From an uncultured Bilophila sp. (GTDB lineage: Bacteria > Desulfobacterota > Desulfovibrionia > Desulfovibrionales > Desulfovibrionaceae): a stretch of 64,000 nucleotides of DNA. Of the stretch, positions 2,093 to 57,560 are shown one piece after another. The stretch is from assembly GCA_910585945.1 (NCBI GenBank), contig CAJUHZ010000003.1:4240-68239 (forward strand), given 5' to 3'. Under the pieces are notes generated by a model, which was not told where the DNA came from, did no database searches, and was given only the letters and a program-made list of their open reading frames with translations. Each line of letters opens with the position of its first letter. Position 1 is the first letter of the stretch. A program made the translations under genes and the position numbers.

Positions 2093-2248
2093 CTAGTGTC
2101 TAATTGCAAAAATTCTGCGCAGAATTCTGCGCAGAATTTCTGCAGGATCGTTCGCGAAAAAACGTGGTTTTTCGCTCACTCACGGCGGCTACGCCGCCGT
2201 AAAACCCTTACGGGTTTTGTAGTGTCTACTTTTGCAAGTAGACACTAG
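2093..2248 (-). mobile_element. Family-1 MITE-like element, copy 1A (156 bp)
   Basis: Termini are CTAGTGTCTA ... TAGACACTAG. It equals copy 1B plus a 12-bp internal duplication (ctgcgcagaatt). No ORF. Its right terminus contains the uppP stop codon. Confidence 0.85.
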
Positions 2249-3048: not shown

Positions 3049-3633
3049 CTACTCGCAGGAATCGCAGGGGGTGATGGCGCGCGCCACGAAATGCACGGCT
3101 TCCTCATAGAGCCGGGGCGGCGCGTAGGGCGTCAGCACGCGGGTACGGTTGACGCCAACGACCATGGACATGATGAGCTGCACGGTTTGCGGCACAGGCA
3201 GATCGCGGATGGAGCCGTCTTCAATGCCGCGCCACAGTTCCTGTTCCAGCACCAGGTGCACTTCATTGAACTTGCGGAACATGATGTCCCGCTCGGCGCC
3301 GGTTTTCATGTCGCTGTACGGCGAGCAGCGGACGAGAACCAGCCAGTTGGAGTTCGGGTCCACCGAAAAATCAAGATAGGCGGTGGTGAAGTTGAGCACG
3401 CCTTCCCGGCCGGTTTTCCCTTTGGCGCAGGCTTCGCGCAGGACGCCGAGAAACTCGTTCAACACATCCATGCCGGCGGCGAGAAAAAGTTTTTCCTTGT
3501 TGCCGTAGTGGTGTGTGAGCAGGCCGAGCGCCACGCCCGCCCGTTCGGAAATTTTTTTGAATGTGGTTTCCGCGTAGCCGTATTCGCCAAAAAGCTCCTT
3601 GGCCGCTTTCAGCAGCGCTTCCTTTTTTGTCAT
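3049..3633 (-). CDS. TetR/AcrR family transcriptional regulator
   Basis: MTKKEALLKAAKELFGEYGYAETTFKKISERAGVALGLLTHHYGNKEKLF is a TetR HTH. Start chosen at the internal ATG after GGGGGAG. The ORF is open to 3672. Confidence 0.88.
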   Translation of the reverse strand: MTKKEALLKAAKELFGEYGYAETTFKKISERAGVALGLLTHHYGNKEKLFLAAGMDVLNEFLGVLREACAKGKTGREGVLNFTTAYLDFSVDPNSNWLVLVRCSPYSDMKTGAERDIMFRKFNEVHLVLEQELWRGIEDGSIRDLPVPQTVQLIMSMVVGVNRTRVLTPYAPPRLYEEAVHFVARAITPCDSCE

Positions 3634-3853: not shown

Positions 3854-5176
3854 CTATCGATCCGCCTCCGGGTTTGCAACGGGCAGGCGGATCCGGGCCT
3901 TCAGCGAGTCGTAGACCGGGGCGCAGCCAAGGCGGCTGGCGAGCAGCGAAGCCAGAAAGGCGACAAGCGCGGTTCCCGGCAGGCAGGCGACGGTTCCGGA
4001 CATTTCCAGCACCAGAGCGATTCCGGTCAGGGGCGCGCGCACGCTGGCGGCGAACAGACCGGCCATGCCGAACACGATAAACGCGTCCGCTCCCGCGGGG
4101 TCCATGAGACCGGCCGCCGCAAGCGCTCCGCCGGTCGCGTGACCGGCCAGAGCGCCGATGCACAGCAGCGGCATGAGCAGACCGCCCGGCACGTTCCCCA
4201 TATAGCTGAAAATGGAGAAGGTCATTTTCAGCACAAAGAGCAGCAGGAGCAGGCGCATGGGGGTGGGCGCGGTCCCCAGGGTAACGATCAGGCCGTCGCC
4301 CCCGCCGAGCACCTGAGGAAAGGTGAAGGCCAGCACTCCGGCCACGAGCAGGGCGGGCAGGGTGCGCAGACCCGTGGGCAGCGGGTTCCGCCTCGCTTCC
4401 GCGTCCTTGAAGCGGATCAGAAGGACGTTGTAGGCGACGCCAAGCACGCCGATCAGCCCGCCGAGAAGGAGCAGCGCCCACCATTGGGAAAACGGCGGCG
4501 GCGTGAAGTGCGCAAAAGGAAAAAGCCGCCCCAGGCCGAACAGCCGCGCGGCCACCGTTTGCGCGGCAAATGCGGCTGTCAGCGCGAAAAGAATGTTGAC
4601 CGGCGTGAGCCGATTCTTCATTTCCTCAAAAGCAAAAAGAATTCCTGCGACAGGCGCGCCAAAGGCGGCGGCCAGGCCGGCGGCCGCCCCGCCGATGACC
4701 CAGGGACTTTCAGTCGTTTCGGGGTGACGGGCAAAGCTCCCCGCGATCGCGCCCACGGCGCTTCCCATCTGCACGCAGGGGCCTTCGCGTCCCAGGGAAA
4801 GCCCGCCCAGCAGGGCCAGCCAGCTCCCGGCAAACTTGGCCGCCAGCAAGCGGGCCCAGGCCACGGGCGCAAGGACGATCCGTCCGGCCAGGGTCAGCTC
4901 AGTTTGTGGAATGCCGCTTCCCGGAATCAGCGGAACCGCCGCGACAAGACGGCCGATGAGCGCCGCCACGAGAACAAGAACCAGCCCCCAGAACGGAATG
5001 ATTGACCAGTGTTCACCCGCCGTGCCGAACCAGTGCAGGAGTTTGGCGGAACTCCAGTTGTGCACCGTGCGGAAACAGGCGACCACCACGCCGACGCAAA
5101 GCCCTGTGACAAGGCCATGCCCGCAGGCGGCGACGGGACCGGGCAGCTTCCCTCCGGGTAGAACGTCTTTCTCCAT
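3854..5176 (-). CDS. ClC family voltage-gated chloride channel / H+-Cl- antiporter
   Basis: 440 aa. Contains the ClC filter motifs GSGIPQ, GREGP and GAPVAGILFAFEE. Highly hydrophobic. Confidence 0.9.
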   Translation of the reverse strand: MEKDVLPGGKLPGPVAACGHGLVTGLCVGVVVACFRTVHNWSSAKLLHWFGTAGEHWSIIPFWGLVLVLVAALIGRLVAAVPLIPGSGIPQTELTLAGRIVLAPVAWARLLAAKFAGSWLALLGGLSLGREGPCVQMGSAVGAIAGSFARHPETTESPWVIGGAAAGLAAAFGAPVAGILFAFEEMKNRLTPVNILFALTAAFAAQTVAARLFGLGRLFPFAHFTPPPFSQWWALLLLGGLIGVLGVAYNVLLIRFKDAEARRNPLPTGLRTLPALLVAGVLAFTFPQVLGGGDGLIVTLGTAPTPMRLLLLLFVLKMTFSIFSYMGNVPGGLLMPLLCIGALAGHATGGALAAAGLMDPAGADAFIVFGMAGLFAASVRAPLTGIALVLEMSGTVACLPGTALVAFLASLLASRLGCAPVYDSLKARIRLPVANPEADR

Positions 5177-5244: not shown

Positions 5245-5344
5245 GGCAAACGCTCGGCGGCCGCGAGAGCGGACGCCCGTGCCGAACAAGCGGGCAAACC
5301 GCGTTTTGCCGCGCCTGTCCCGCTCCGTAGGGAAGTGACGGCAA
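5245..5344 (+). repeat. Family-4 100-bp intergenic repeat, copy 4a
   Basis: About 95% identical to the reverse complement of 34926..35025 (ggcaaacgc.cggcggccgcgagagcggacgcccgtgccgaacaagc.gg.aaaccgcgttttgccgcgcctgtcccgctccg..gggaagtgacggcaa). Confidence 0.85.
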
Positions 5345-5383
5345 CCCCGCGATTGAAAACGAATATTTTCGATCGCAAATGTC

Positions 5384-5551
5384 TGGGGTCAGCCCTCATT
5401 AAAATGCCGTCCGCAAAAAGCCGTTTTTTCCGGCCGGCAAGGGGCAGACATTGGGCGAAGCTGTATTGGACATGGTCAATGTTGGTCCTGCAACGCCGCC
5501 GGATGTAAAAAGGCGGCTATGCGGCAGGCGGGTTCATGGGGGCTGATCCCA
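5384..5551 (+). mobile_element. Family-3 MITE-like element, copy 3a
   Basis: About 85% identical to 26716..26876 and to the reverse complement of 46692..46866. Termini are ggggtcagccctcat.. / ..catgggggctgatccc. Overlaps the 3' end of holB. Confidence 0.8.
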
Positions 5552-6437
5552 GCACATGCAGGCGGATCGCCAGCCGGTCCAGAACAAGCGCGGGGCTGAC
5601 CAGGGCATCGACGGACGCCTGGCTTTCGGCCAGAATGTCGCCTGCTTCCAGGCGAAGCAGATCGGGAAGTCGCGCCAGATGGTGGGCAAGGGTTCCGGGC
5701 GTGCACGGCGCGCGTCGGGCAAGGACGTCGGCCAGCGTTTTTTGCGTCAGCGCGATCACGCGGCGGGCCAGGGGCGCATCCACCGCGCCCTTGCGCGAAG
5801 TCAGGGCGAACCATCCCTGACCGGTAGCCGCGAAGCGGGCCAGGGCGGCTTCCCATTCACGCAGTTCCGGCGCGAGCGGGGCGGAGGCGTTCCAGGGCAG
5901 GGTCAGCGTCCAGCCGCGTGAAACAAGCGTGGGGAGCAGGCGTTGCCGTTGCGGCGCGAGGAGCAGAAAGCAAACGTCGGGCTTGGGTTCTTCCAGCGAC
6001 TTGAGCAGGGCGTTGGCGGCTTCCGTGCCGAGCGCCTGGGCTTCGGCAAAAATGACGACGCGCCTGCCTTCCCCGCGCGGCGGCTCGCCCAGGACGACGC
6101 GAAGTTCGCGCACGCTTTCGATTTTGATGCTTCCTTCCCGTCCGTCCAGAAAAAAGAGATCCTTGAAGACGCCGGCCCCGATTTGCAGACAGGACGGGCA
6201 TTCAAGACAGGGGCGCTCGCCCTCCGCCCGGCAGTTGAGGCGCGCCGCCTGCCACAGGGCCACGCTTGCGCGTTCGCTCGCCGTGCCGCCTTCCAGAATC
6301 AGCACTTGCGGGGGATCGTCCGCGATGCGGTCGAGGGTTTCCCGCAGGCGCGCCTGTCGCGGCGTCAGCGCTTCGGTGAACGCCTCCCGCGCCTGTTCCC
6401 GTGTGGGGAGTTCCGGTTCCGTTGGTTTTGCAGCCAT
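5517..6437 (-). CDS. holB: DNA polymerase III subunit delta-prime
   Basis: 306 aa. Clamp-loader pattern: CLECPSCLQI zinc module, VVIFAEAQALGTEAANALLKSLEEP, and TLVSRG sensor motif. Confidence 0.85.
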   Translation of the reverse strand: MAAKPTEPELPTREQAREAFTEALTPRQARLRETLDRIADDPPQVLILEGGTASERASVALWQAARLNCRAEGERPCLECPSCLQIGAGVFKDLFFLDGREGSIKIESVRELRVVLGEPPRGEGRRVVIFAEAQALGTEAANALLKSLEEPKPDVCFLLLAPQRQRLLPTLVSRGWTLTLPWNASAPLAPELREWEAALARFAATGQGWFALTSRKGAVDAPLARRVIALTQKTLADVLARRAPCTPGTLAHHLARLPDLLRLEAGDILAESQASVDALVSPALVLDRLAIRLHVLGSAPMNPPAA

Positions 6438-6467
6438 GACAGTCCTGCCTCTTGTCGCCCAAACCGT

Positions 6468-8210
6468 TCACATGCCGACGGCAAGGCGTTTTTCCAGATC
6501 CGGGGCGGGGCTGACCAACAGCCCTTCCTCATATCTGTCCACGCGCGTTTCTCCGGCGCGGCCGCCCCGCAGGGGGTGAACGTGACCGGCCAGGGCGCGC
6601 ACCACGTCCACGGGGCTTTCATCCTTTTTCCAGCTTTTGAGAATGGCCAGGGAGCCGGCTTCCTGAAGCGTGGCGGCGGGGATTTCCTGCCCGGCATGAT
6701 CCCGGCGAACAATCACATGCGCGCCGGGGCCGCCGCCCACATGCAACCAGAGATCGTGCGGGGCCGCCAGCTTGAGCACGGCGGCATTGCCGGCGGCGTC
6801 ACGGCCGCGAAGGATGAGAAAGCCGTCGGAACTCCGGAAGAGCTGGACGTTTTTCGGCCAGTCCCGCCCCCCATTCCGCCCGTGTCGGCGGGCGCTCTCT
6901 GTTCCCGGCGAGAGCGTCCGGGGCGTCCGGGGCCTTCCGGACGCGCTGACGCCGGCTCCGGATCGGGCTGGCTTGCGTGTCCCTTCAAGCCCGGCGCGCG
7001 CACGCACGGCCGCCTGCTCGGCCTGTTCGAGTTCGGCGGCCACGCTTTCCCGCCGTCCGGCGAGCATGGCAAGGCCGCGTTTGCCCCGGCGCGCCGTATG
7101 GAAGAGCGCGGCCATATTCTCCCGCACGGTCAGGCGAGGGTTCAGGACGATCCGGCGGCCCTGATTCGCATCGGGCCTTTCCGTGCCGCGCGCGTCCGGG
7201 ACATGCAACTCCGGGGCGCCCATCTCCGGCGCAGGCGTTTCCGGGGCGGAGAGCGCCGGGGGCAGGAGCACGGCGGCCTGTTTTTCATCCGGGCCAAACA
7301 GGTAGAGACAGGTCTGGAGGGCCAGGGCGTCGTCTCCGGCCGCCTGCATTCGGCTCAGGCGGGCTTCTTCATCGTCAAGTTTGGCAAGCAGGCGTCTCAG
7401 TCGCGCGGCTTCAGCCAGATGGGGACGGGCGCGCTCCGCGCCCGCGCGATCGGCCAGATCGCGCAGGACGCGGCGTTCGCCGGCCAGGGCCGCCGCTTCG
7501 AGGGCGTTTTCCAGCACGCGTTCGTTCAGATTTCCGCCGGGGGCGGGTCGCTTGCGCCGCACCTCCTCAGGCAGGGGCCAGGCGAAAAGTTCGCGCCTGC
7601 CGGCTTCGTCTTCATAAAGGAAGAGATCGCCGCCGCCGGCTTCCAGATCAAGCAGCAATGCGGCCTGTTCTTCTGGCGGAAGCGATGCGAGCGTCCGGCG
7701 CAGGGCAGGCGTGAGCACTGGCCAGTTCCGCCAGTCTTCCCCTTGCGCGGCGCGCGCCTGTTCGGGGGACGGCCAGCGGGGCGGCGGGGGATCGTCCGGC
7801 GCGCGGCGCAGCAGCCGCACGCCTTCCCGCAGATCAAGGCAGAGCCACAGCCCGCCGCATTCTCCCTGTTCCGAATCCGGAATGCGCTCTTGCCCCGATG
7901 AGGGAAAATGCAGGTACAGACGTCGTTCCACCCAATCGTCGAAAGCGGCGATCACACGCCGGCCAGCGAGGTGCTTGCGCAGAAACATGACGGAAGCGGG
8001 CGGCTGGCTTCCGTCGGAAATCTTGTGATCGGCAAGAAAGAGGAAGGGGGTCTTGCGCCCAGCCTTCAAAAAGAGGTAACGCTTGCGGCCATGCCCGTAC
8101 AGGGTGAAGACAGTGACGTCCGCCCCGGGCTGGTGGATTTTTTCCAGCCGGCAACCGGTGAGCGCCGGCGTCAGCTCCGCACAGATCCGGCGAAAAACAT
8201 GACAATCCAT
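6468..8210 (-). CDS. NFACT-family (FbpA/RqcH-like, DUF814) RNA-binding protein
   Basis: 580 aa. N-terminal NFACT-N-like region. The C-terminal FRSSDGFLILRGRDAAGNAAVL...LWLHVGGGPGAHVIV matches the NFACT-R/DUF814 signature. Confidence 0.75.
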   Translation of the reverse strand: MDCHVFRRICAELTPALTGCRLEKIHQPGADVTVFTLYGHGRKRYLFLKAGRKTPFLFLADHKISDGSQPPASVMFLRKHLAGRRVIAAFDDWVERRLYLHFPSSGQERIPDSEQGECGGLWLCLDLREGVRLLRRAPDDPPPPRWPSPEQARAAQGEDWRNWPVLTPALRRTLASLPPEEQAALLLDLEAGGGDLFLYEDEAGRRELFAWPLPEEVRRKRPAPGGNLNERVLENALEAAALAGERRVLRDLADRAGAERARPHLAEAARLRRLLAKLDDEEARLSRMQAAGDDALALQTCLYLFGPDEKQAAVLLPPALSAPETPAPEMGAPELHVPDARGTERPDANQGRRIVLNPRLTVRENMAALFHTARRGKRGLAMLAGRRESVAAELEQAEQAAVRARAGLEGTRKPARSGAGVSASGRPRTPRTLSPGTESARRHGRNGGRDWPKNVQLFRSSDGFLILRGRDAAGNAAVLKLAAPHDLWLHVGGGPGAHVIVRRDHAGQEIPAATLQEAGSLAILKSWKKDESPVDVVRALAGHVHPLRGGRAGETRVDRYEEGLLVSPAPDLEKRLAVGM

Positions 8211-8288: not shown

Positions 8289-8651
8289 TTATTCGCCGCG
8301 GATGGTTTCGCCTTCTTCCTGGCGGCTTTTGCAGTTGATGCACAGCTTGGTCACAGGGCGGGCCTTGAGGCGGGGGATGCTGATCTCTTCGCCGCAATCT
8401 TCGCAAATGCCGTAGGTGCCGTCCTCAATACGCTGAATGGCGGCCTGGATTTTCCGGATGAGCCGCCGCTCCCGATCGCGCAGACGCAAGGTGAATGAGC
8501 GATCCGACTCGGCGGAGGCGCGATCGGCCGGGTCCGCGAACAGTTCGTTGCTGTCGGTCAGATCTTCAAGGGTGGAATCGCCTTTATGTTGTGCTTCTTC
8601 CAGCATCCTGGTCAGCAGGGTGCGGAAGTACTCGACATCTTTTTGATCCAA
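8289..8651 (-). CDS. dksA: DksA/TraR family C4 zinc-finger transcription factor
   Basis: CEDC-N17-CINC zinc finger and a coiled coil with an acidic tip (ADPADRASAESD). TTG start at 8651 follows GAGGAGG. The upstream extension of ORF 8289..9008 looks non-coding. Confidence 0.82.
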   Translation of the reverse strand: MDQKDVEYFRTLLTRMLEEAQHKGDSTLEDLTDSNELFADPADRASAESDRSFTLRLRDRERRLIRKIQAAIQRIEDGTYGICEDCGEEISIPRLKARPVTKLCINCKSRQEEGETIRGE

Positions 8652-8905
8652 GTGGGCCTCCTCTCGGTTCGCGGCGGGGCAGGACTGCCCGCCTTCGGAG
8701 AACCGCTCCTGTAGAGTATGATACAGTGCTCCCGTATATGGGAAAAAAAGCCGCCCGTAAAGTCCCTGAGAGGCTGAAGGAGCACCAATTCTCATGTCTG
8801 CCCCGGGAGATTTTTCGCCCGGTTTTCCGGATGCCGCGGGGAGCCTGGCTTCCCCTCCGGGGCGTGTGCGCGGCTCTTCCGTTCGGCCGGCAATTGGCCT
8901 ACACT

Positions 8906-9010
8906 GGGGGTGGCCCTCATGAGAACGCTGTCCGCGAAAAGCCGACATTTTTCGGCCTGCTCGGTCAGGCAACGGGCGAAGCCGCCGGACATGCGGTTTG
9001 CCTGGCAAGG
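8906..9010 (+). repeat. Degenerate family-3-related fragment (3d)
   Basis: gggtggccctcatgagaacgctgtccgcgaaaagccgacatttttcggcc...gggcgaagc resembles the left half of family 3, but is diverged. Confidence 0.35.
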
Positions 9011-9062: not shown

Positions 9063-9206
9063 CTAGTGTCTAATTGCAAAAATTCTGCGCAGAATTTTTG
9101 CAGGATCGTTCGCGAAAAAACGTGGTTTTTCGCTCACTCACGGCGGCTACGCCGCCGCAAAACCCTTACGGGTTTTGTAGTGTCTACTTTTGCAAGTAGA
9201 CACTAG
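9063..9206 (-). mobile_element. Family-1 MITE-like element, copy 1B (144 bp)
   Basis: Termini are CTAGTGTCTA ... TAGACACTAG. Differs from the reverse complement of 35116..35259 at about 3 positions. Ends 32 bp before the glnN ATG. Confidence 0.88.
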
Positions 9207-9238: not shown

Positions 9239-11443
9239 ATGAGCGGAAGCAACGCCCGCAGCAATGCGATTCAGGCCATCACAAGTTACAAGTCCGAACC
9301 CGCACCTCTCAATTTCGCCGGCGCCAGACCCACCGAAATCTATGGGTGCAACGTGTTCAGCGACAAGGTGATGAAGGAGCGGCTGCCCCGCGTCGTGTAC
9401 CGTTCCCTCCGGGAAACCATCGAACGGGGGCGGCATCTTGATCCTTCCCTCGCGGACATTGTGGCCTCGGCCATGAAGGATTGGGCCATTGAAAAGGGCG
9501 CGACGCACTTCACCCATGTGTTTTACCCCCTGACCGGTCTGTCGGCGGAAAAGCACGACAGCTTTCTCAGCCCTGACGGCAGCGGCGGCGTGATCACCGA
9601 ATTCAGCGGAAAAATGCTCAGCCAGGGCGAGTCGGACGCCTCCAGTTTCCCTTCCGGCGGCTTGCGCAGCACTTTCGAGGCGCGGGGCTACACCGCCTGG
9701 GACGTGACAAGCCCGGCCTATCTCATGGAATACACGAGCGGCATTGTGCTGTGCATCCCCACGGCCTTTCTTTCCTGGACGGGGGTGGCGCTTGACCGCA
9801 AGACCCCGCTTCTGCGTTCCAATCAGGCGCTGAACAGGCAGGCCAGCCGCATCCTGCGTCTTTTCGACAAGAAGACGGATTTGCCCATCGTCTCTTTTGC
9901 CGGGCTGGAGCAGGAATTTTTTCTCATCGATCGCAATTTTGTCTTTGGCCGGCCGGATCTGCTCATTGCCGGGCGCACGCTGTTCGGAGCCAAGCCGGCC
10001 AAGGGGCAGGAGTTCGAGGATCAGTATTATGGCGTGATGCCGCGGCGCGTGCTGAGTTGCCTGAGCGAGACCGAGCTTGAACTGTACAAGCTCGGCATTC
10101 CCGTGCGAACCCGGCATAACGAAGTCGCTCCCAGCCAGTACGAGATCGCGCCGGTGTTCGAGGCGGGCAACCTTGCCATTGACCACAACCAGCTTATGAT
10201 GACGGTGCTGCGCAATGTGTCCAAACGGCACGGCCTGACCTGTCTGCTCCATGAAAAACCGTTCCTCGGCATCAACGGATCCGGCAAGCATCTCAATTAC
10301 TCCATCGGCAACGCCGAAGTGGGGAGCCTGTTCGACCCTGGCGACACGCCGCACGAGAACGCCATGTTTCTCGTTTTTCTGGTGGCGGCCATTCGCGGCC
10401 TGCACAAGTACGGGGGGCTGCTCCGGGCCACGGCCGCGGCGGCGTCCAACGATCACCGGCTGGGCGCCAATGAGGCCCCGCCCGCAATCATGTCCATGTT
10501 CCTTGGCGATCAGCTTGCGGATGTTCTGGAACAGATTCGCATCGGCAAGGTGCACGGTTCCAGGGGCAAACGGCTGATGAACGTCGGCGTGGACACGCTC
10601 CCGCCCCTGCCAGCCGATCCGGGCGATCGCAACCGCACCAGCCCCTTTGCCTTCACCGGCAACCGTTTTGAATTTCGGGCGCTCGGATCGAGCATGCCCG
10701 CCTCGGCCACCCAGGCGGTGCTCAACACCATCATGGCCGATTCGCTTGATTTCGCGGCCACGCGGCTGGAGCGTCTCACCGAGGGTGATCCGGGCAAACG
10801 CAACGCCGCCGTGCATACCCTGATCCAGGAGATTATGGAGGAACACAGCGCCGTCATCTTCAATGGCGACGGCTATTCCGAAGTCTGGCATCAGGAAGCC
10901 GAGCGCCGCGGCCTGCCCAACTACCGCACCACGCCCGAAGCCCTCATGGCCTATACCAGCCCCGACGCCATAGACCTGTACGGGCGGTACAATGTCCTGT
11001 CCCGCACGGAACTCAAGGCGCGGCAGGAAATCTACATCGAGCAGTACTGCAAGACGATCCGCACCGAGGCGAACCTGGTCATCCGCATGGCCCGAACCAT
11101 CGTCTACCCGGCCGGGCTTCGCTATCAGCGCGAACTGGCGGGCGTCTGCCTCGACATGTGCGCCATCAACAAGGAACTGAACCGCCCGAATCGGGAGCCG
11201 GACACGGCCTTGCTGGATCAGGTGGAAAGTCTGCTTGCGGCCTTGCGCAAGGCTGTCGACGGTCTGGAATCCGTGCTGGAAAACGGGGAGTACGCCAACA
11301 GCGTGCAGGAAGCCCATCATTACAGGGTGGAAGTGCTCCCGCGCATGGAGGAGGTTCGCGCTCTGGCCGACAGCCTGGAAACCCTGACCCCCGAAGATCT
11401 CTGGCCCCTGCCCAGTTATCAGGAGATGCTGTTCATCAAGTAG
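9239..11443 (+). CDS. glnN: Glutamine synthetase, type III
   Basis: 734 aa, the typical GSIII length. Contains the [12 protein letters not shown] catalytic motif and [22 protein letters not shown] lies upstream. Confidence 0.9.
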
Positions 11444-11590
11444 AAGTCATTTCATAATTCCCATGAAATGACTTTTCACGCCGGACGGGAGTCTGGCGCG
11501 GCCGAAAAGCGCCGTGAATGAAGCCCAAAAGACGTTTTTTGGCGAATGCTCTTCATCGTTCAGCCCCAGGGCTGGACGATGAAATGAGTT
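11443..11590 (+). repeat. Family-2 multi-hairpin intergenic repeat, copy 2b
   Basis: Same module order as 1921..2069. Starts at the last base of the glnN TAG stop. Core at 11514..11550. Confidence 0.85.
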
Positions 11591-11640
11591 GTAGAAAGGT
11601 GAACTGTGCCCCTGAGGGGAAGAGCAATAAAGGAGGCCGT

Positions 11641-12207
11641 ATGCCCGCAATCTCGTTTGATACGCTGGCCTATGCGAAAGAAGTGGAAGGCGCCGGTTTC
11701 ACCAGACAGCAGGCGGAAGCTTTTGCTTTGGCGCAAAAAAGACTTTTTCATGAGGTCATGTCCACAAGCGAACTGGCGACAAAGCTCGATCTGAACGATG
11801 TGCATACGGGGCTGAGTACTGAAATTCAGGACGTGCGCACGGAACTGAAGACCGAAATCCAGAACGTTCGCACGGAATTAAAGACTGAAATTCAGGAAGT
11901 ACGCACCGAACTGAAGACTGAGATCCAGAACGTTCGCACGGAATTAAAGACTGAAATTCAGGAAGTGCGCACCGAACTGAAGACTGAGATCCAGGACGTG
12001 CGTCTTGAAACCGAAAAGCTGCGCACGGATCTGAAAGCCGAGATCCAGGACGTTCGCCTTGAAACCGAAAAGCTGCGCACGGATCTCACGGAAAAGATGG
12101 AAGCCAACAAGCACGAAATCCTTAAGTGGATGCTGGGCACGGTTGTTGCGCAAACCGCGCTTATTGTCGCCGTCATCGGTGTGGCGATCGCGCTTGTGGT
12201 CAAATAG
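11641..12207 (+). CDS. DUF1640-family coiled-coil membrane-anchored protein with expanded tandem repeats
   Basis: ATG after AAAGGAGG. The N-terminus MPAISFDTLAYAKEVEGAGFTRQQAEAF and the C-terminus EILKWMLGTVVAQTALIVAVIGVAIALVVK fit the DUF1640 architecture. The centre consists of 11-aa and 18-aa repeats. Confidence 0.8.
   Translation: MPAISFDTLAYAKEVEGAGFTRQQAEAFALAQKRLFHEVMSTSELATKLDLNDVHTGLSTEIQDVRTELKTEIQNVRTELKTEIQEVRTELKTEIQNVRTELKTEIQEVRTELKTEIQDVRLETEKLRTDLKAEIQDVRLETEKLRTDLTEKMEANKHEILKWMLGTVVAQTALIVAVIGVAIALVVK
11821..12093 (+). repeat. In-frame tandem repeat array (5 x 33 bp + 2 x 54 bp) inside the DUF1640 gene
   Basis: Units encode EIQ(D/N/E)VRTELKT at 11821, 11854, 11887, 11920 and 11953, then EIQDVRLETEKLRTDL(KA/TE) at 11986 and 12040. 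Units 2+3 versus 4+5 form a 66-bp duplicate with 2 mismatches. Confidence 0.95.
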
Positions 12208-26715: not shown

Positions 26716-26876
26716 GGGGGCAGCCCTCATGAAAACGCCGGTCGCGAAAGGCCGTTTTTTCCGGCCGGCAAGGGGCAAAGATTGGGCGAAGTTGTATTGA
26801 ACATGCGTCAATGCTGACCCTGCAACGTCGCCGGACGCCAAAAGGCGGCTATGCGGCAGGCGGGTTCATGAGGAAG
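26716..26876 (+). mobile_element. Family-3 MITE-like element, copy 3b
   Basis: Collinear with 5384..5551, including the identical segment ggcggctatgcggcaggcgggttcatg. Confidence 0.8.
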
Positions 26877-30271: not shown

Positions 30272-30554
30272 GCAGGGGCGGGGGGCGCTCCGGAGATTCC
30301 CTTTCTTGTTTTTTTGGGGTAAGCGTTCAATAATGCTTTCCGCACGTCTCCATACGGCGGGCGCACGGCGGTTTGCCGAAAAACAGTCTTTTCATTGCGC
30401 CCCGGCAGGGGCCTGCCGGCGCGTGTCGGTTCTGGAGCCGTTTGGCTTTCAAAATGTTCTGGCGGCCGCGAGAGCAACCGCCCTGCCGAAGGAACGGAAG
30501 CGACCGGAGCGCGCCCGCTCGGGCAAGGCGGATTACGGGCATCGACAGCAATGC

Positions 30555-30629
30555 AAACCGCGTTTTTTCGTGAACGATCCTGCACAACAAGTCACGCAAA
30601 CCATGCAGGCATGTTGTGCAATCAGACCC
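30555..30629 (+). repeat. Variant copy of the shared repeat core with a different hairpin
   Basis: aaaccgcgttttttcgtgaacgatcc + tgcacaaca...tgttgtgca + atcagaccc. The flanks match family 1 (cgttttttcgcgaacgatcc ... atcagacac), but the stem sequence has been replaced. Confidence 0.65.
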
Positions 30630-34925: not shown

Positions 34926-35025
34926 TTGCCGTCACTTCCCCGCGGAGCGGGACAGGCGCGGCAAAACGCGGTTTACCGGCTTGTTCGGCACGGGCGTCCG
35001 CTCTCGCGGCCGCCGGGCGTTTGCC
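34926..35025 (-). repeat. Family-4 100-bp intergenic repeat, copy 4b
   Basis: Reverse complement is about 95% identical to 5245..5344. Confidence 0.85.
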
Positions 35026-46691: not shown

Positions 46692-46866
46692 TTAGGGTCA
46701 GCCCTCATGAAAACGCCTGCTGCAAAGCCGTCTTTTTGCGTCCGGCGGCGTTGCAAGGCGAACATTGACCTTGCTATGTTCAATACAGCTTCGCCCAATG
46801 TTTGCCCCTTGCCGGCCGGAAAAAACGGCTTTTCGTGGACGGCATTTTGATGAGGGCTGACCCTAA
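46692..46866 (-). mobile_element. Family-3 MITE-like element, full-length copy 3c (175 bp)
   Basis: Terminal inverted repeats TTAGGGTCAGCCCTCATGAAAA.GCC / GGCATTTTGATGAGGGCTGACCCTAA. The interior is collinear with the reverse complement of 3a and 3b. Confidence 0.88.
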
Positions 46867-56861: not shown

Positions 56862-57425
56862 ATGTTTTTTCTTCTGGGCGGCAACGAGAAAAAGACGCGC
56901 AAAGCGCCGGCCAAGGCTGACGGTGTTTCCGAGCGTGTGAAAGAGCTGTTTCTGAGCGGGCGTTTCCCCGTGGTCACGACAGATCGGGTTGAAGGAAAGG
57001 AAATATCCAAGGTGCTCGGCCTGGTGTGCTGCCGCGGCTATGACTCCGAAGAGGCTTTTTTCGGCATGGCTTCCCGCGCGGTGAACAAGGGCGCGCACGC
57101 CATTGTCGGCTATATTGAAAATGTGGCCTTCCACCCCGACGGGAGCAAGTATTTCTCCTGCTACGGCACGGCGGTCATGTTTGAATGGGAGCCGGAGGAA
57201 AAATTCGGGGCGGCCGCGCTGCTTTCCCTGAAGCGTCCCCAGGTCTCCGGCGTTCAGGAAGAAGTCCGGCAGGACTTGTTGCGTGCCGCCTCCATGCGGG
57301 ACGAGAGCGTGCCGCCCCTTCGTCCGGGGATGCGCGTCAGCAAAGTGACGCCGCAAGACGACCTGGGCCTTGATCTTGAGGATTCGCTGGCCGAAGAAAT
57401 CGCCCCCCGCCAACGGCGCGGATAG
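56862..57425 (+). CDS. Hypothetical protein with YbjQ/UPF0145-like core and acidic C-terminal extension
   Basis: ATG follows GAGGAGGG. GAHAIVGYIENVAFHPDGSKYFSCYGTAVMFE resembles the UPF0145 C-terminal pattern. Motif-level evidence only. Confidence 0.5.
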   Translation: MFFLLGGNEKKTRKAPAKADGVSERVKELFLSGRFPVVTTDRVEGKEISKVLGLVCCRGYDSEEAFFGMASRAVNKGAHAIVGYIENVAFHPDGSKYFSCYGTAVMFEWEPEEKFGAAALLSLKRPQVSGVQEEVRQDLLRAASMRDESVPPLRPGMRVSKVTPQDDLGLDLEDSLAEEIAPRQRRG

Positions 57426-57560
57426 AGCAATTTTTCATGAAAAATTGCTCTGGCGGACGCGTATAAGCGGACGCCAGCGCCGTAATGAGCTTGAAAACCA
57501 CGTTTTTTCGCGAACGATCCTGCAAAAATTCTTCGCAGAATTTTTGCAATCAGACACCAG
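57423..57560 (+). repeat. Mosaic repeat (family-2-type left half + family-1-type right half), copy 1D
   Basis: Order: TAG stop, then hairpin gagcaattttt-catg-aaaaattgctc, then ctggcg...cgccag, then core gtaatgagcttgaaaaccacgttttttcgcgaacgatcc, then the 28-bp palindrome tgcaaaaattcttcgcagaatttttgca, then atcagacaccag. Confidence 0.8.

Follow-up and report, generated by a model that had tools for sequence, protein, structure and literature searches.

What kind of sequence is the 144-bp block, almost entirely made of hairpins, that lies immediately upstream of a glutamine synthetase gene in the 64,000 nucleotides of DNA analysed here (the whole stretch is called the window below), and how did nearly identical copies of it come to lie at other loci of the same window? 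A comparison of these copies with empty sites, with related repeats and with complete insertion sequences indicates that this sequence, designated family 1, is very likely a non-autonomous MITE of the IS630/Tc1-mariner superfamily, which has no gene of its own and is moved in trans by a matching IS630-family transposase. A search of the literature on Desulfovibrio MITEs found no paper describing these elements; family 1 represents a new family within a well-known class of elements. Its four loci in the window, the mosaic copy included, are present where a preliminary description made from the sequence alone had placed them:

9063..9206, + strand: copy 1B, family-1 MITE, 144 bp, CTAG to CTAG; between the divergent dksA-like gene (8289-8795, - strand) and the type III glutamine synthetase gene (9239-11443, + strand)
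2093..2248, + strand: copy 1A, family 1, long-palindrome variant, 156 bp; in the TA of the bacA stop codon
35116..35259, - strand: copy 1C, family 1, inverted, left terminus degenerate (CCAGTGTCTGA); between a divergent beta-lactamase-family gene and ilvC
57423..57560, - strand: copy 1D, mosaic; the family-1 part (about 85 nt, approximately 57476-57560) comprises the left end, the palindrome and the first core hairpin and is joined to another terminal-hairpin module (AGAGCAATTTTTCATGAAAAATTGCTCT), which directly adjoins the stop codon of a ybjQ-like gene (TAG, 57423-57425)

Copies 1B and 1C differ at exactly three positions (2, 10 and 28), in agreement with the approximate count given in the preliminary description. 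The same description presented 1A as 1B with a 12-bp duplication; the 12-nt insert (AATTCTGCGCAG) is indeed there and lengthens the palindrome to 40 bp, but two substitutions also separate these copies. Sub-motifs of 22-28 nt are found three to four times each in the window, where shuffled sequences lead one to expect 0.00-0.01 occurrences. The element is small (144-156 bp) and the ORFs that overlap it are judged spurious, so that the initial statement that it contains no ORF stands; exact-protein look-ups and a protein search gave no match for the ORFs reading through the element, and one flanking ORF has no record. Family 1 reaches four copies per 64 kb, and additional copies occur in other genomes. 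Their near-identity had first been attributed either to recent mobility or to strong selection: recent transposition suffices to account for it, and strong selection is not required.

The organization of the element, exemplified by copy 1B, is as follows:

9063..9079, + strand: left terminal inverted repeat, C-TA-GTGTCTAATTGCAA, in which TA is the presumed target duplication
9075..9102, + strand: hairpin 1, a 28-bp perfect palindrome
9104..9177, + strand: conserved core, which starts with GATCGTTC and contains hairpins 2-4
9112-9133: hairpin 2
9141-9157: hairpin 3
9158-9177: hairpin 4
9178..9205, + strand: hairpin 5, terminal, in which an extra inner copy of the end motif is paired with the right inverted repeat
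9190..9206, + strand: right terminal inverted repeat, TTGCAAGTAGACAC-TA-G

The terminal inverted repeat (CTAGTGTCTAMTTGCAA) is 17 bp long with one mismatch, CTAGTGTCTA[A/C]TTGCAA, and not 10 bp as initially reported. In an alignment of copies it is kept in 14 copies from at least five genomes; a lack of conserved termini genome-wide, which would speak against a mobile element, is thus contradicted by at least 14 copies belonging to several Desulfovibrio species. The hairpins that had been recognized by eye are those of the minimum-energy fold of the element, which has a z-score of -10.3 (DNA parameters) or -8.4 (RNA parameters). Covariation was evaluated on 14 copies, some of them from the window and the others from five or more further genomes. 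Pairing within the five local hairpins amounts to 96.5% in this alignment, and changes on both sides of a pair were found in 11 cells, a value matched by none of 500 shuffles; these compensatory changes mostly concern the terminal hairpin (three of its ten pairs, across species). The 40-bp palindrome, centred on GAATTC, which corresponds to the 28-bp one extended by the 12-nt insert, is found in 1A, L008, L011, L012, L018 and L051. In L008 and L018, which belong to other species, this longer palindrome is maintained by compensatory CA/TG changes. In the terminal hairpin and in the palindrome, it is thus the structure that is conserved. Pairing of the left end with the right end shows no co-variation in the 14 copies (the observed values equal the shuffled ones), which indicates that the two ends are conserved as sequences, the pattern expected of protein-binding sites. 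The wobble pairs do not show any strand bias (13 versus 10) and give no sign that one strand is the transcribed one.

All young copies of family 1 are flanked by C-TA on the left and by TA-G on the right. CTAG is extremely rare in the window (8 occurrences versus 220 expected from base composition, an about 27-fold depletion), and five of these eight sites are family-1 ends, two more being stop codons. The dinucleotide TA is itself under-represented 2.6-fold in the window (883 observed versus 2279 expected). The length of the target duplication can be read from a second family of repeats:

1921-2069: family 2, TA on both sides
11443-11591: family 2, TA on both sides

The base that follows the right TA varies in this family (G, A or C) and that following the left TA is G in nine of ten copies, a pattern that indicates a 2-bp duplication of TA rather than a 4-bp one; a 4-bp duplication of the IS5 type (YTAR) was therefore rejected. 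The same choice of target characterizes IS630 from Shigella sonnei and ISY100 from Synechocystis, which, like family 1, use a TA preferentially located in CTAG and duplicate it. That IS630 transposes to TA in 5'-CTAG-3' is the title statement of Tenzen and Ohtsubo 1991, as it appears in the reference list of PMC2170065. Elements of the IS630/ISY100 family move by cut-and-paste at TA and need only their terminal repeats in cis; those of ISY100 are short (24 bp) and are its sole cis requirement (PMC2170065), family 1 being likewise short-ended.

Recent movement can be observed directly. Three contigs that are 99.8% identical to the window (L001, L039 and L040) lack both 1A and 1B, and their empty sites are identical to one another. 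Seven others (L041, L043, L044 and L046-L049) were picked as contigs carrying the window's own allele of a CLC channel protein. Copy 1B is absent from L001, L039 and L040 and present in L041, L043, L044 and L047; the site of 1A (site A) is empty in L001, L039, L040, L044 and L049 and filled in L041, L043, L046 and L048. Three haplotypes can thus be distinguished: A-/B- (L001, L039 and L040), A-/B+ (L044) and A+/B+ (the window, L041 and L043). The A-/B+ haplotype implies that the insertion at the site of 1B (site B) preceded that at site A. Copy 1C was found in all five full contigs sampled, which points to an older insertion. A lack of insertion polymorphism, one of the observations that would have refuted the preliminary description, is therefore not what these 99.8%-identical contigs show: family 1 was mobile until very recently in this Desulfovibrio lineage of the mouse gut. 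Sulfate-reducing bacteria of the gut thus harbour an active transposon system, and strains differ in its insertions. As expected from a multi-copy repeat, copies are places where assemblies stop or jump to another locus (L037, L038, L042, L055, L057 and L058), so family 1 breaks metagenome assemblies.

Which enzyme moves these elements? No transposase domain was found in the window, as first described, whether in the Pfam-annotated gene lists (1-21.4 kb, 33-39 kb and 42.9-64 kb) or by Pfam scans of ORFs elsewhere; a few ORFs at 27-29 kb are devoid of any Pfam match. Blastn searches against plasmids and phages did not retrieve anything significant with copy 1B, and a metagenome scan with the 20-mer of the right end retrieved two loci only. 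Scanning viral contigs with the end motif revealed a complete insertion sequence of 1120 bp in L059 (positions 6177-7297), C-TA-[GTGTCTACTTGCAAAAAT...CGCAATTAGACAC]-TA-G. Its ORF encodes a protein of 356 amino acids that matches the NCBIfam model NF033545 (IS630 family transposase) with 223.7 bits for a cut-off of 100 and also displays Pfam DDE_3 and HTH domains. Read inward, the MITE's right end is identical over 19 nt to the left end of this IS, as is the MITE's left end over 15 nt to the right end of the IS; the motif GTGTCTAATTGC of the left repeat matches the ends of IS630-family IS. Two other elements, whose transposases are 84% (L061) and 65% (L062) identical to that of L059, have related ends and are likewise flanked by C-TA...TA-G. 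The affiliation to IS630/Tc1-mariner, which was proposed from the outer TA in the preliminary description, is thus backed by complete IS630-family elements that share both termini and flanks. In L059, L061 and L062, the TAG stop of the transposase gene falls inside the right inverted repeat. Homologues of the L059 transposase are numerous and most of them are found on contigs of about 1.1-1.3 kb, which is typical of multi-copy insertion sequences.

A transposase gene bordered by the same ends is therefore found in IS of the L059/L061 type on other contigs, and the window's own species yields 44 nt of such an IS. The assembly L055 encodes a PFOR protein identical to that of the window, which assigns it to the same species. 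At positions 3905-4087, beside a LysR gene, it carries a family-1 copy that shares one TA with CTAGTGCCTAATTGCAAAAATAAGG...; the sequence that continues after this TA (AAATAAGG) is IS-like, resembles the subterminal region of L059 and L061, unlike that of the MITE, and runs into an assembly gap after 44 nt. This truncated IS630-type left end probably belongs to the autonomous partner in the window's species. Following homologues towards the IS beside the LysR gene led to a contig that stops inside the repeat, before the IS; neither a scan of viral contigs nor a blastn search against plasmids and phages gave a significant match to this IS end. A further element with ends of the same type, 153 bp in length, lies in L052 (about 3050-3203), on a contig that also bears NRPS and ABC-transporter genes. 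Its inverted repeat, 27 nt long, is of family-1 type (CTAGTGYCTAYTYGCAAAAGTTCGTGT) and its interior is unrelated, which indicates that the same ends mobilize different cargoes; it has no significant blastn match in plasmids and phages either.

The movement of family 1 would thus involve the following steps. The two 17-bp inverted ends would be bound and cleaved by a DDE transposase supplied in trans by an IS630-family insertion sequence of about 1.12 kb that has the same termini (GTGTCTAMTTGCA). This transposase, which we infer to be encoded in the window's genome, would excise the element and paste it into the TA of a C-TA-G site, the TA being duplicated. Additional binding sites for the transposase may be provided by the hairpins of the interior and by the supplementary inner end motif, or these may act as DNA or RNA structures. 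Since CTAG is scarce in this genome (62% G+C in the window), the usable targets would mostly be stop codons and intergenic spots, so that copies would gather at gene boundaries. As the element starts with G on either strand, its insertion into a TAA or TAG stop would rebuild a TAG and leave the gene intact. This is what is seen at bacA, whose stop codon is TAA in the empty alleles and TAG (TA followed by the terminal G of the element) in the filled ones. The TA of a stop codon is used by four of the seven core-bearing copies of the window, those at bacA, the ybjQ-like gene, an HD-domain gene (1919-1921) and glnA (11441-11443), the latter two being copies of family 2; the G with which the elements start restores a TAG stop. 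The extreme depletion in CTAG combined with a CTAG-specific, stop-rebuilding element would be an example of a genome steering a parasite to harmless sites.

Filled and empty sites differ by more than the element and its TA. At site A, the sequence of every empty allele is CTTTCC-AGCT-TA-GCGCAGG, even in L044 and L049, two contigs of the window's lineage that also have its SNP at 2056, whereas that of every filled allele is CTTTCC-CGCC-TA-[element]-TA-GCGCAGG. The junction on the right is exact, as is the duplication of TA (once when empty, twice when filled), and two of the four nucleotides to the left of TA are changed. At site B, the single empty allele sampled, which comes from the other lineage, reads GCCGCCCCCAGG versus the expected GCCGCCCTAGG, i.e., CCCCCAGG instead of CCCTAGG, without TA and with CCA in its place. 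As the background divergence is only about 0.2% (17 SNPs in 8 kb), these changes of the left flank are tied to the insertions. The idea that the filled alleles were acquired from a divergent strain through homologous recombination was rejected, the changed bases being confined to 4 nt and the nearest SNP (2056) being also present in empty alleles. CGCC abuts the left TA in four of about ten young copies at unrelated loci, including L011, L029 and the second of the loci that are joined in L042, and the left flank of 1B is CGCCC. This recurrence suggests that a few nucleotides of the donor flank travel with the left end, which is not predicted by the standard mechanism. Our best guess is that they would stay attached to the left end on its non-transferred strand and then be ligated in. 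The transposase of ISY100 cuts the non-transferred strand 1-8 nt outside of the element in vitro, on linear substrates (PMC2170065).

The same replacement of target bases at both polymorphic sites (AGCT to CGCC at site A, 2-3 nt at site B), by bases that match the left flank of other copies, could also be produced by template switching or recombination between hairpin-rich repeats, replication copying the donor together with a few flanking bases via microhomology. Mosaics that swap ends at a shared core (1D and L017) would fit such a process as well. However, the right junction lies exactly at the end of the element, with TA, in both events, and all young copies share the same end bases, C-TA...TA-G, which random switching would not generate; moreover, the tandem junction of L055 shares exactly one TA. 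This explanation is consequently regarded as improbable.

Movement as single-stranded DNA by an HUH/Y1 transposase, family 1 being either a palindrome-associated element derived from IS200/IS605 or a REP/REPIN moved by a RAYT, appears even less probable. HUH/Y1 enzymes recognize terminal hairpins, not inverted repeats, and family 1 is indeed made almost entirely of hairpins, with a right-end hairpin maintained by compensatory changes, a GTAG within its end motif and asymmetric junctions, clean on the right and altered on the left. IS200/IS605-derived elements (PATE) and REP/REPIN sequences are characterized by subterminal hairpins, an absence of target duplication and an insertion site bordered on one side by a fixed tetranucleotide. 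To our knowledge, neither IS200/IS605 elements nor REPs have terminal inverted repeats or a flanking TA, whereas family 1 possesses a 17-bp inverted repeat, TA is found on both sides in two families, copies lie in both orientations and the ends are those of IS630-family DDE elements; furthermore, no Y1 transposase was found in the gene lists examined.

The possibility that a host function, rather than transposition by an IS630-type enzyme, accounts for these repeats calls for a comparison with known RNAs. In an Rfam scan of the window, only a tRNA-Phe passes, and no family reaches its threshold on the element, which thus does not correspond to an already curated Rfam family, as might have been feared. 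The best match on the element is RF02902 (Aggregatibacter sRNA 22), at 9097-9186 on the minus strand, over three hairpins, with 28.1 bits for a threshold of 39.8. It is below threshold and is not reproduced in family-2 loci, and the source paper is silent on repeats; it was judged to reflect a fortuitous similarity of one series of hairpins to another. A consensus scan lends no support to a sigma-70 promoter or a terminator within the element. A non-mobile regulatory element kept by selection (terminator or attenuator, small RNA, operator palindrome) is hence the least credible explanation of all, since its strong structure (z = -10.3), its location at gene boundaries, its perfect palindromes and the weak match to RF02902 (E = 0.001) are opposed by its presence or absence in near-identical strains, its occurrence on either side of genes, upstream or downstream, and in both orientations, wobble pairs devoid of strand bias, the lack of a consensus promoter, a sole terminator-like site that is no more than what shuffles give and the lack of any RF02902 match in related families.

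If family 1 is mobilized in trans by an IS630-family transposase, the origin of its interior calls for comment. Family 2 has ends (GAASTCATTTCATAATTC) that are unrelated to those of family 1 and yet the same architecture, i.e., a single left end motif, a palindrome, the same core and a right terminal hairpin; it is found in many genomes of Desulfovibrio and Mailhella (L002, L004, L006, L009, L016, L026-L028 and L030). The region of hairpins 2-3 is common to family 1, family 2 and others across both genera, and the hairpin core was found in at least three families with unrelated termini. Hybrids exist, namely 1D and L017, which combines a family-2 left end with a family-1 right end and occupies a site orthologous to that of a full family-1 copy in L025; such hybrids are most simply explained by recombination at the core that the families share. 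A partial shared core with a different left end (GGGTCTGATTGCACAAC...) lies at 30552-30587 in the window, and its right part recurs in L014. The interior of family 1 has features that would not be required in a mere deletion derivative of an IS, the core being common to families with unrelated ends and the terminal hairpin being kept by compensatory change. A more specific proposal, which we put forward as unlikely though conceivable, is that the shared core is a functional cargo or a cis-acting module instead of a leftover of an IS, and that the CGCC carry-over reflects an in vivo IS630-type movement of donor-flank nucleotides that overwrite the target. The core may then be a transposition enhancer, a site for a host factor or a structured DNA or RNA insulator at gene ends. 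The flank alterations and the shared core thus constitute leads on the mechanism.

Compared with known systems, family 1 is closest to the IS630-family IS, its ends being equal to those of complete elements (L059 and L061, with an NF033545 transposase), and to RUP of Streptococcus pneumoniae, which is an IS630-linked MITE. It differs from them by an interior that is a five-hairpin module and not an obvious IS deletion derivative, by a right end that is a hairpin with an extra inner copy of the end motif, by its hosts, which are gut Desulfovibrionaceae, and by the altered left flank at fresh insertions. Correia elements (CREE/NEMIS) of Neisseria have about 100-155 bp, terminal inverted repeats, a TA duplication and many copies at gene boundaries; their transcripts can fold into hairpins, length variants arise by internal insertion or deletion, and promoter, IHF-site and RNase III functions have been shown. 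They resemble family 1 in size and habit without any sequence relationship. We know of no transposase partner of Correia elements, whereas the partner family has been identified for family 1. REP/BIME and REPIN sequences are, like family 1, short intergenic palindromic repeats with mosaic modules and hairpins kept by compensatory change. However, REPs lack IS-matching terminal inverted repeats and a TA duplication, while family 1 has such repeats with a TA on both flanks, and no RAYT turned up in this analysis.

When one genome per species was scanned with a degenerate version of the core, matches were obtained in Desulfovibrionaceae only (Desulfovibrio spp. and Mailhella), originating from the gut of mouse, human and chicken; the contigs that encode proteins identical to those of the window come from mouse-gut metagenomes and MAGs. 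The ATG of glnA is located 33 nt downstream of the right end of 1B, and insertion differences directly upstream of glnA and on the bacA stop can alter expression between otherwise identical strains.

Other repeats were encountered in the window. A third, unrelated family of intergenic repeats (GGGGTCAGCCCTCAT...) is found at 5385-5549, 26716-26873 and 46695-46863 (inverted), with a partial copy at 8906-8995; a strain polymorphism consisting of two indels, at 5382-5385, falls exactly at the boundary of this family. Another repeat family is represented by a pair of 100-nt inverted repeats that are 95% complementary (5245-5344 and 34926-35025), one of which adjoins 1C. Lastly, the gene located downstream of glnA contains seven in-frame tandem repeats of 33 nt (11785-12069), and the Pfam matches of its orthologue in L001 are CCDC90-like and apolipoprotein.
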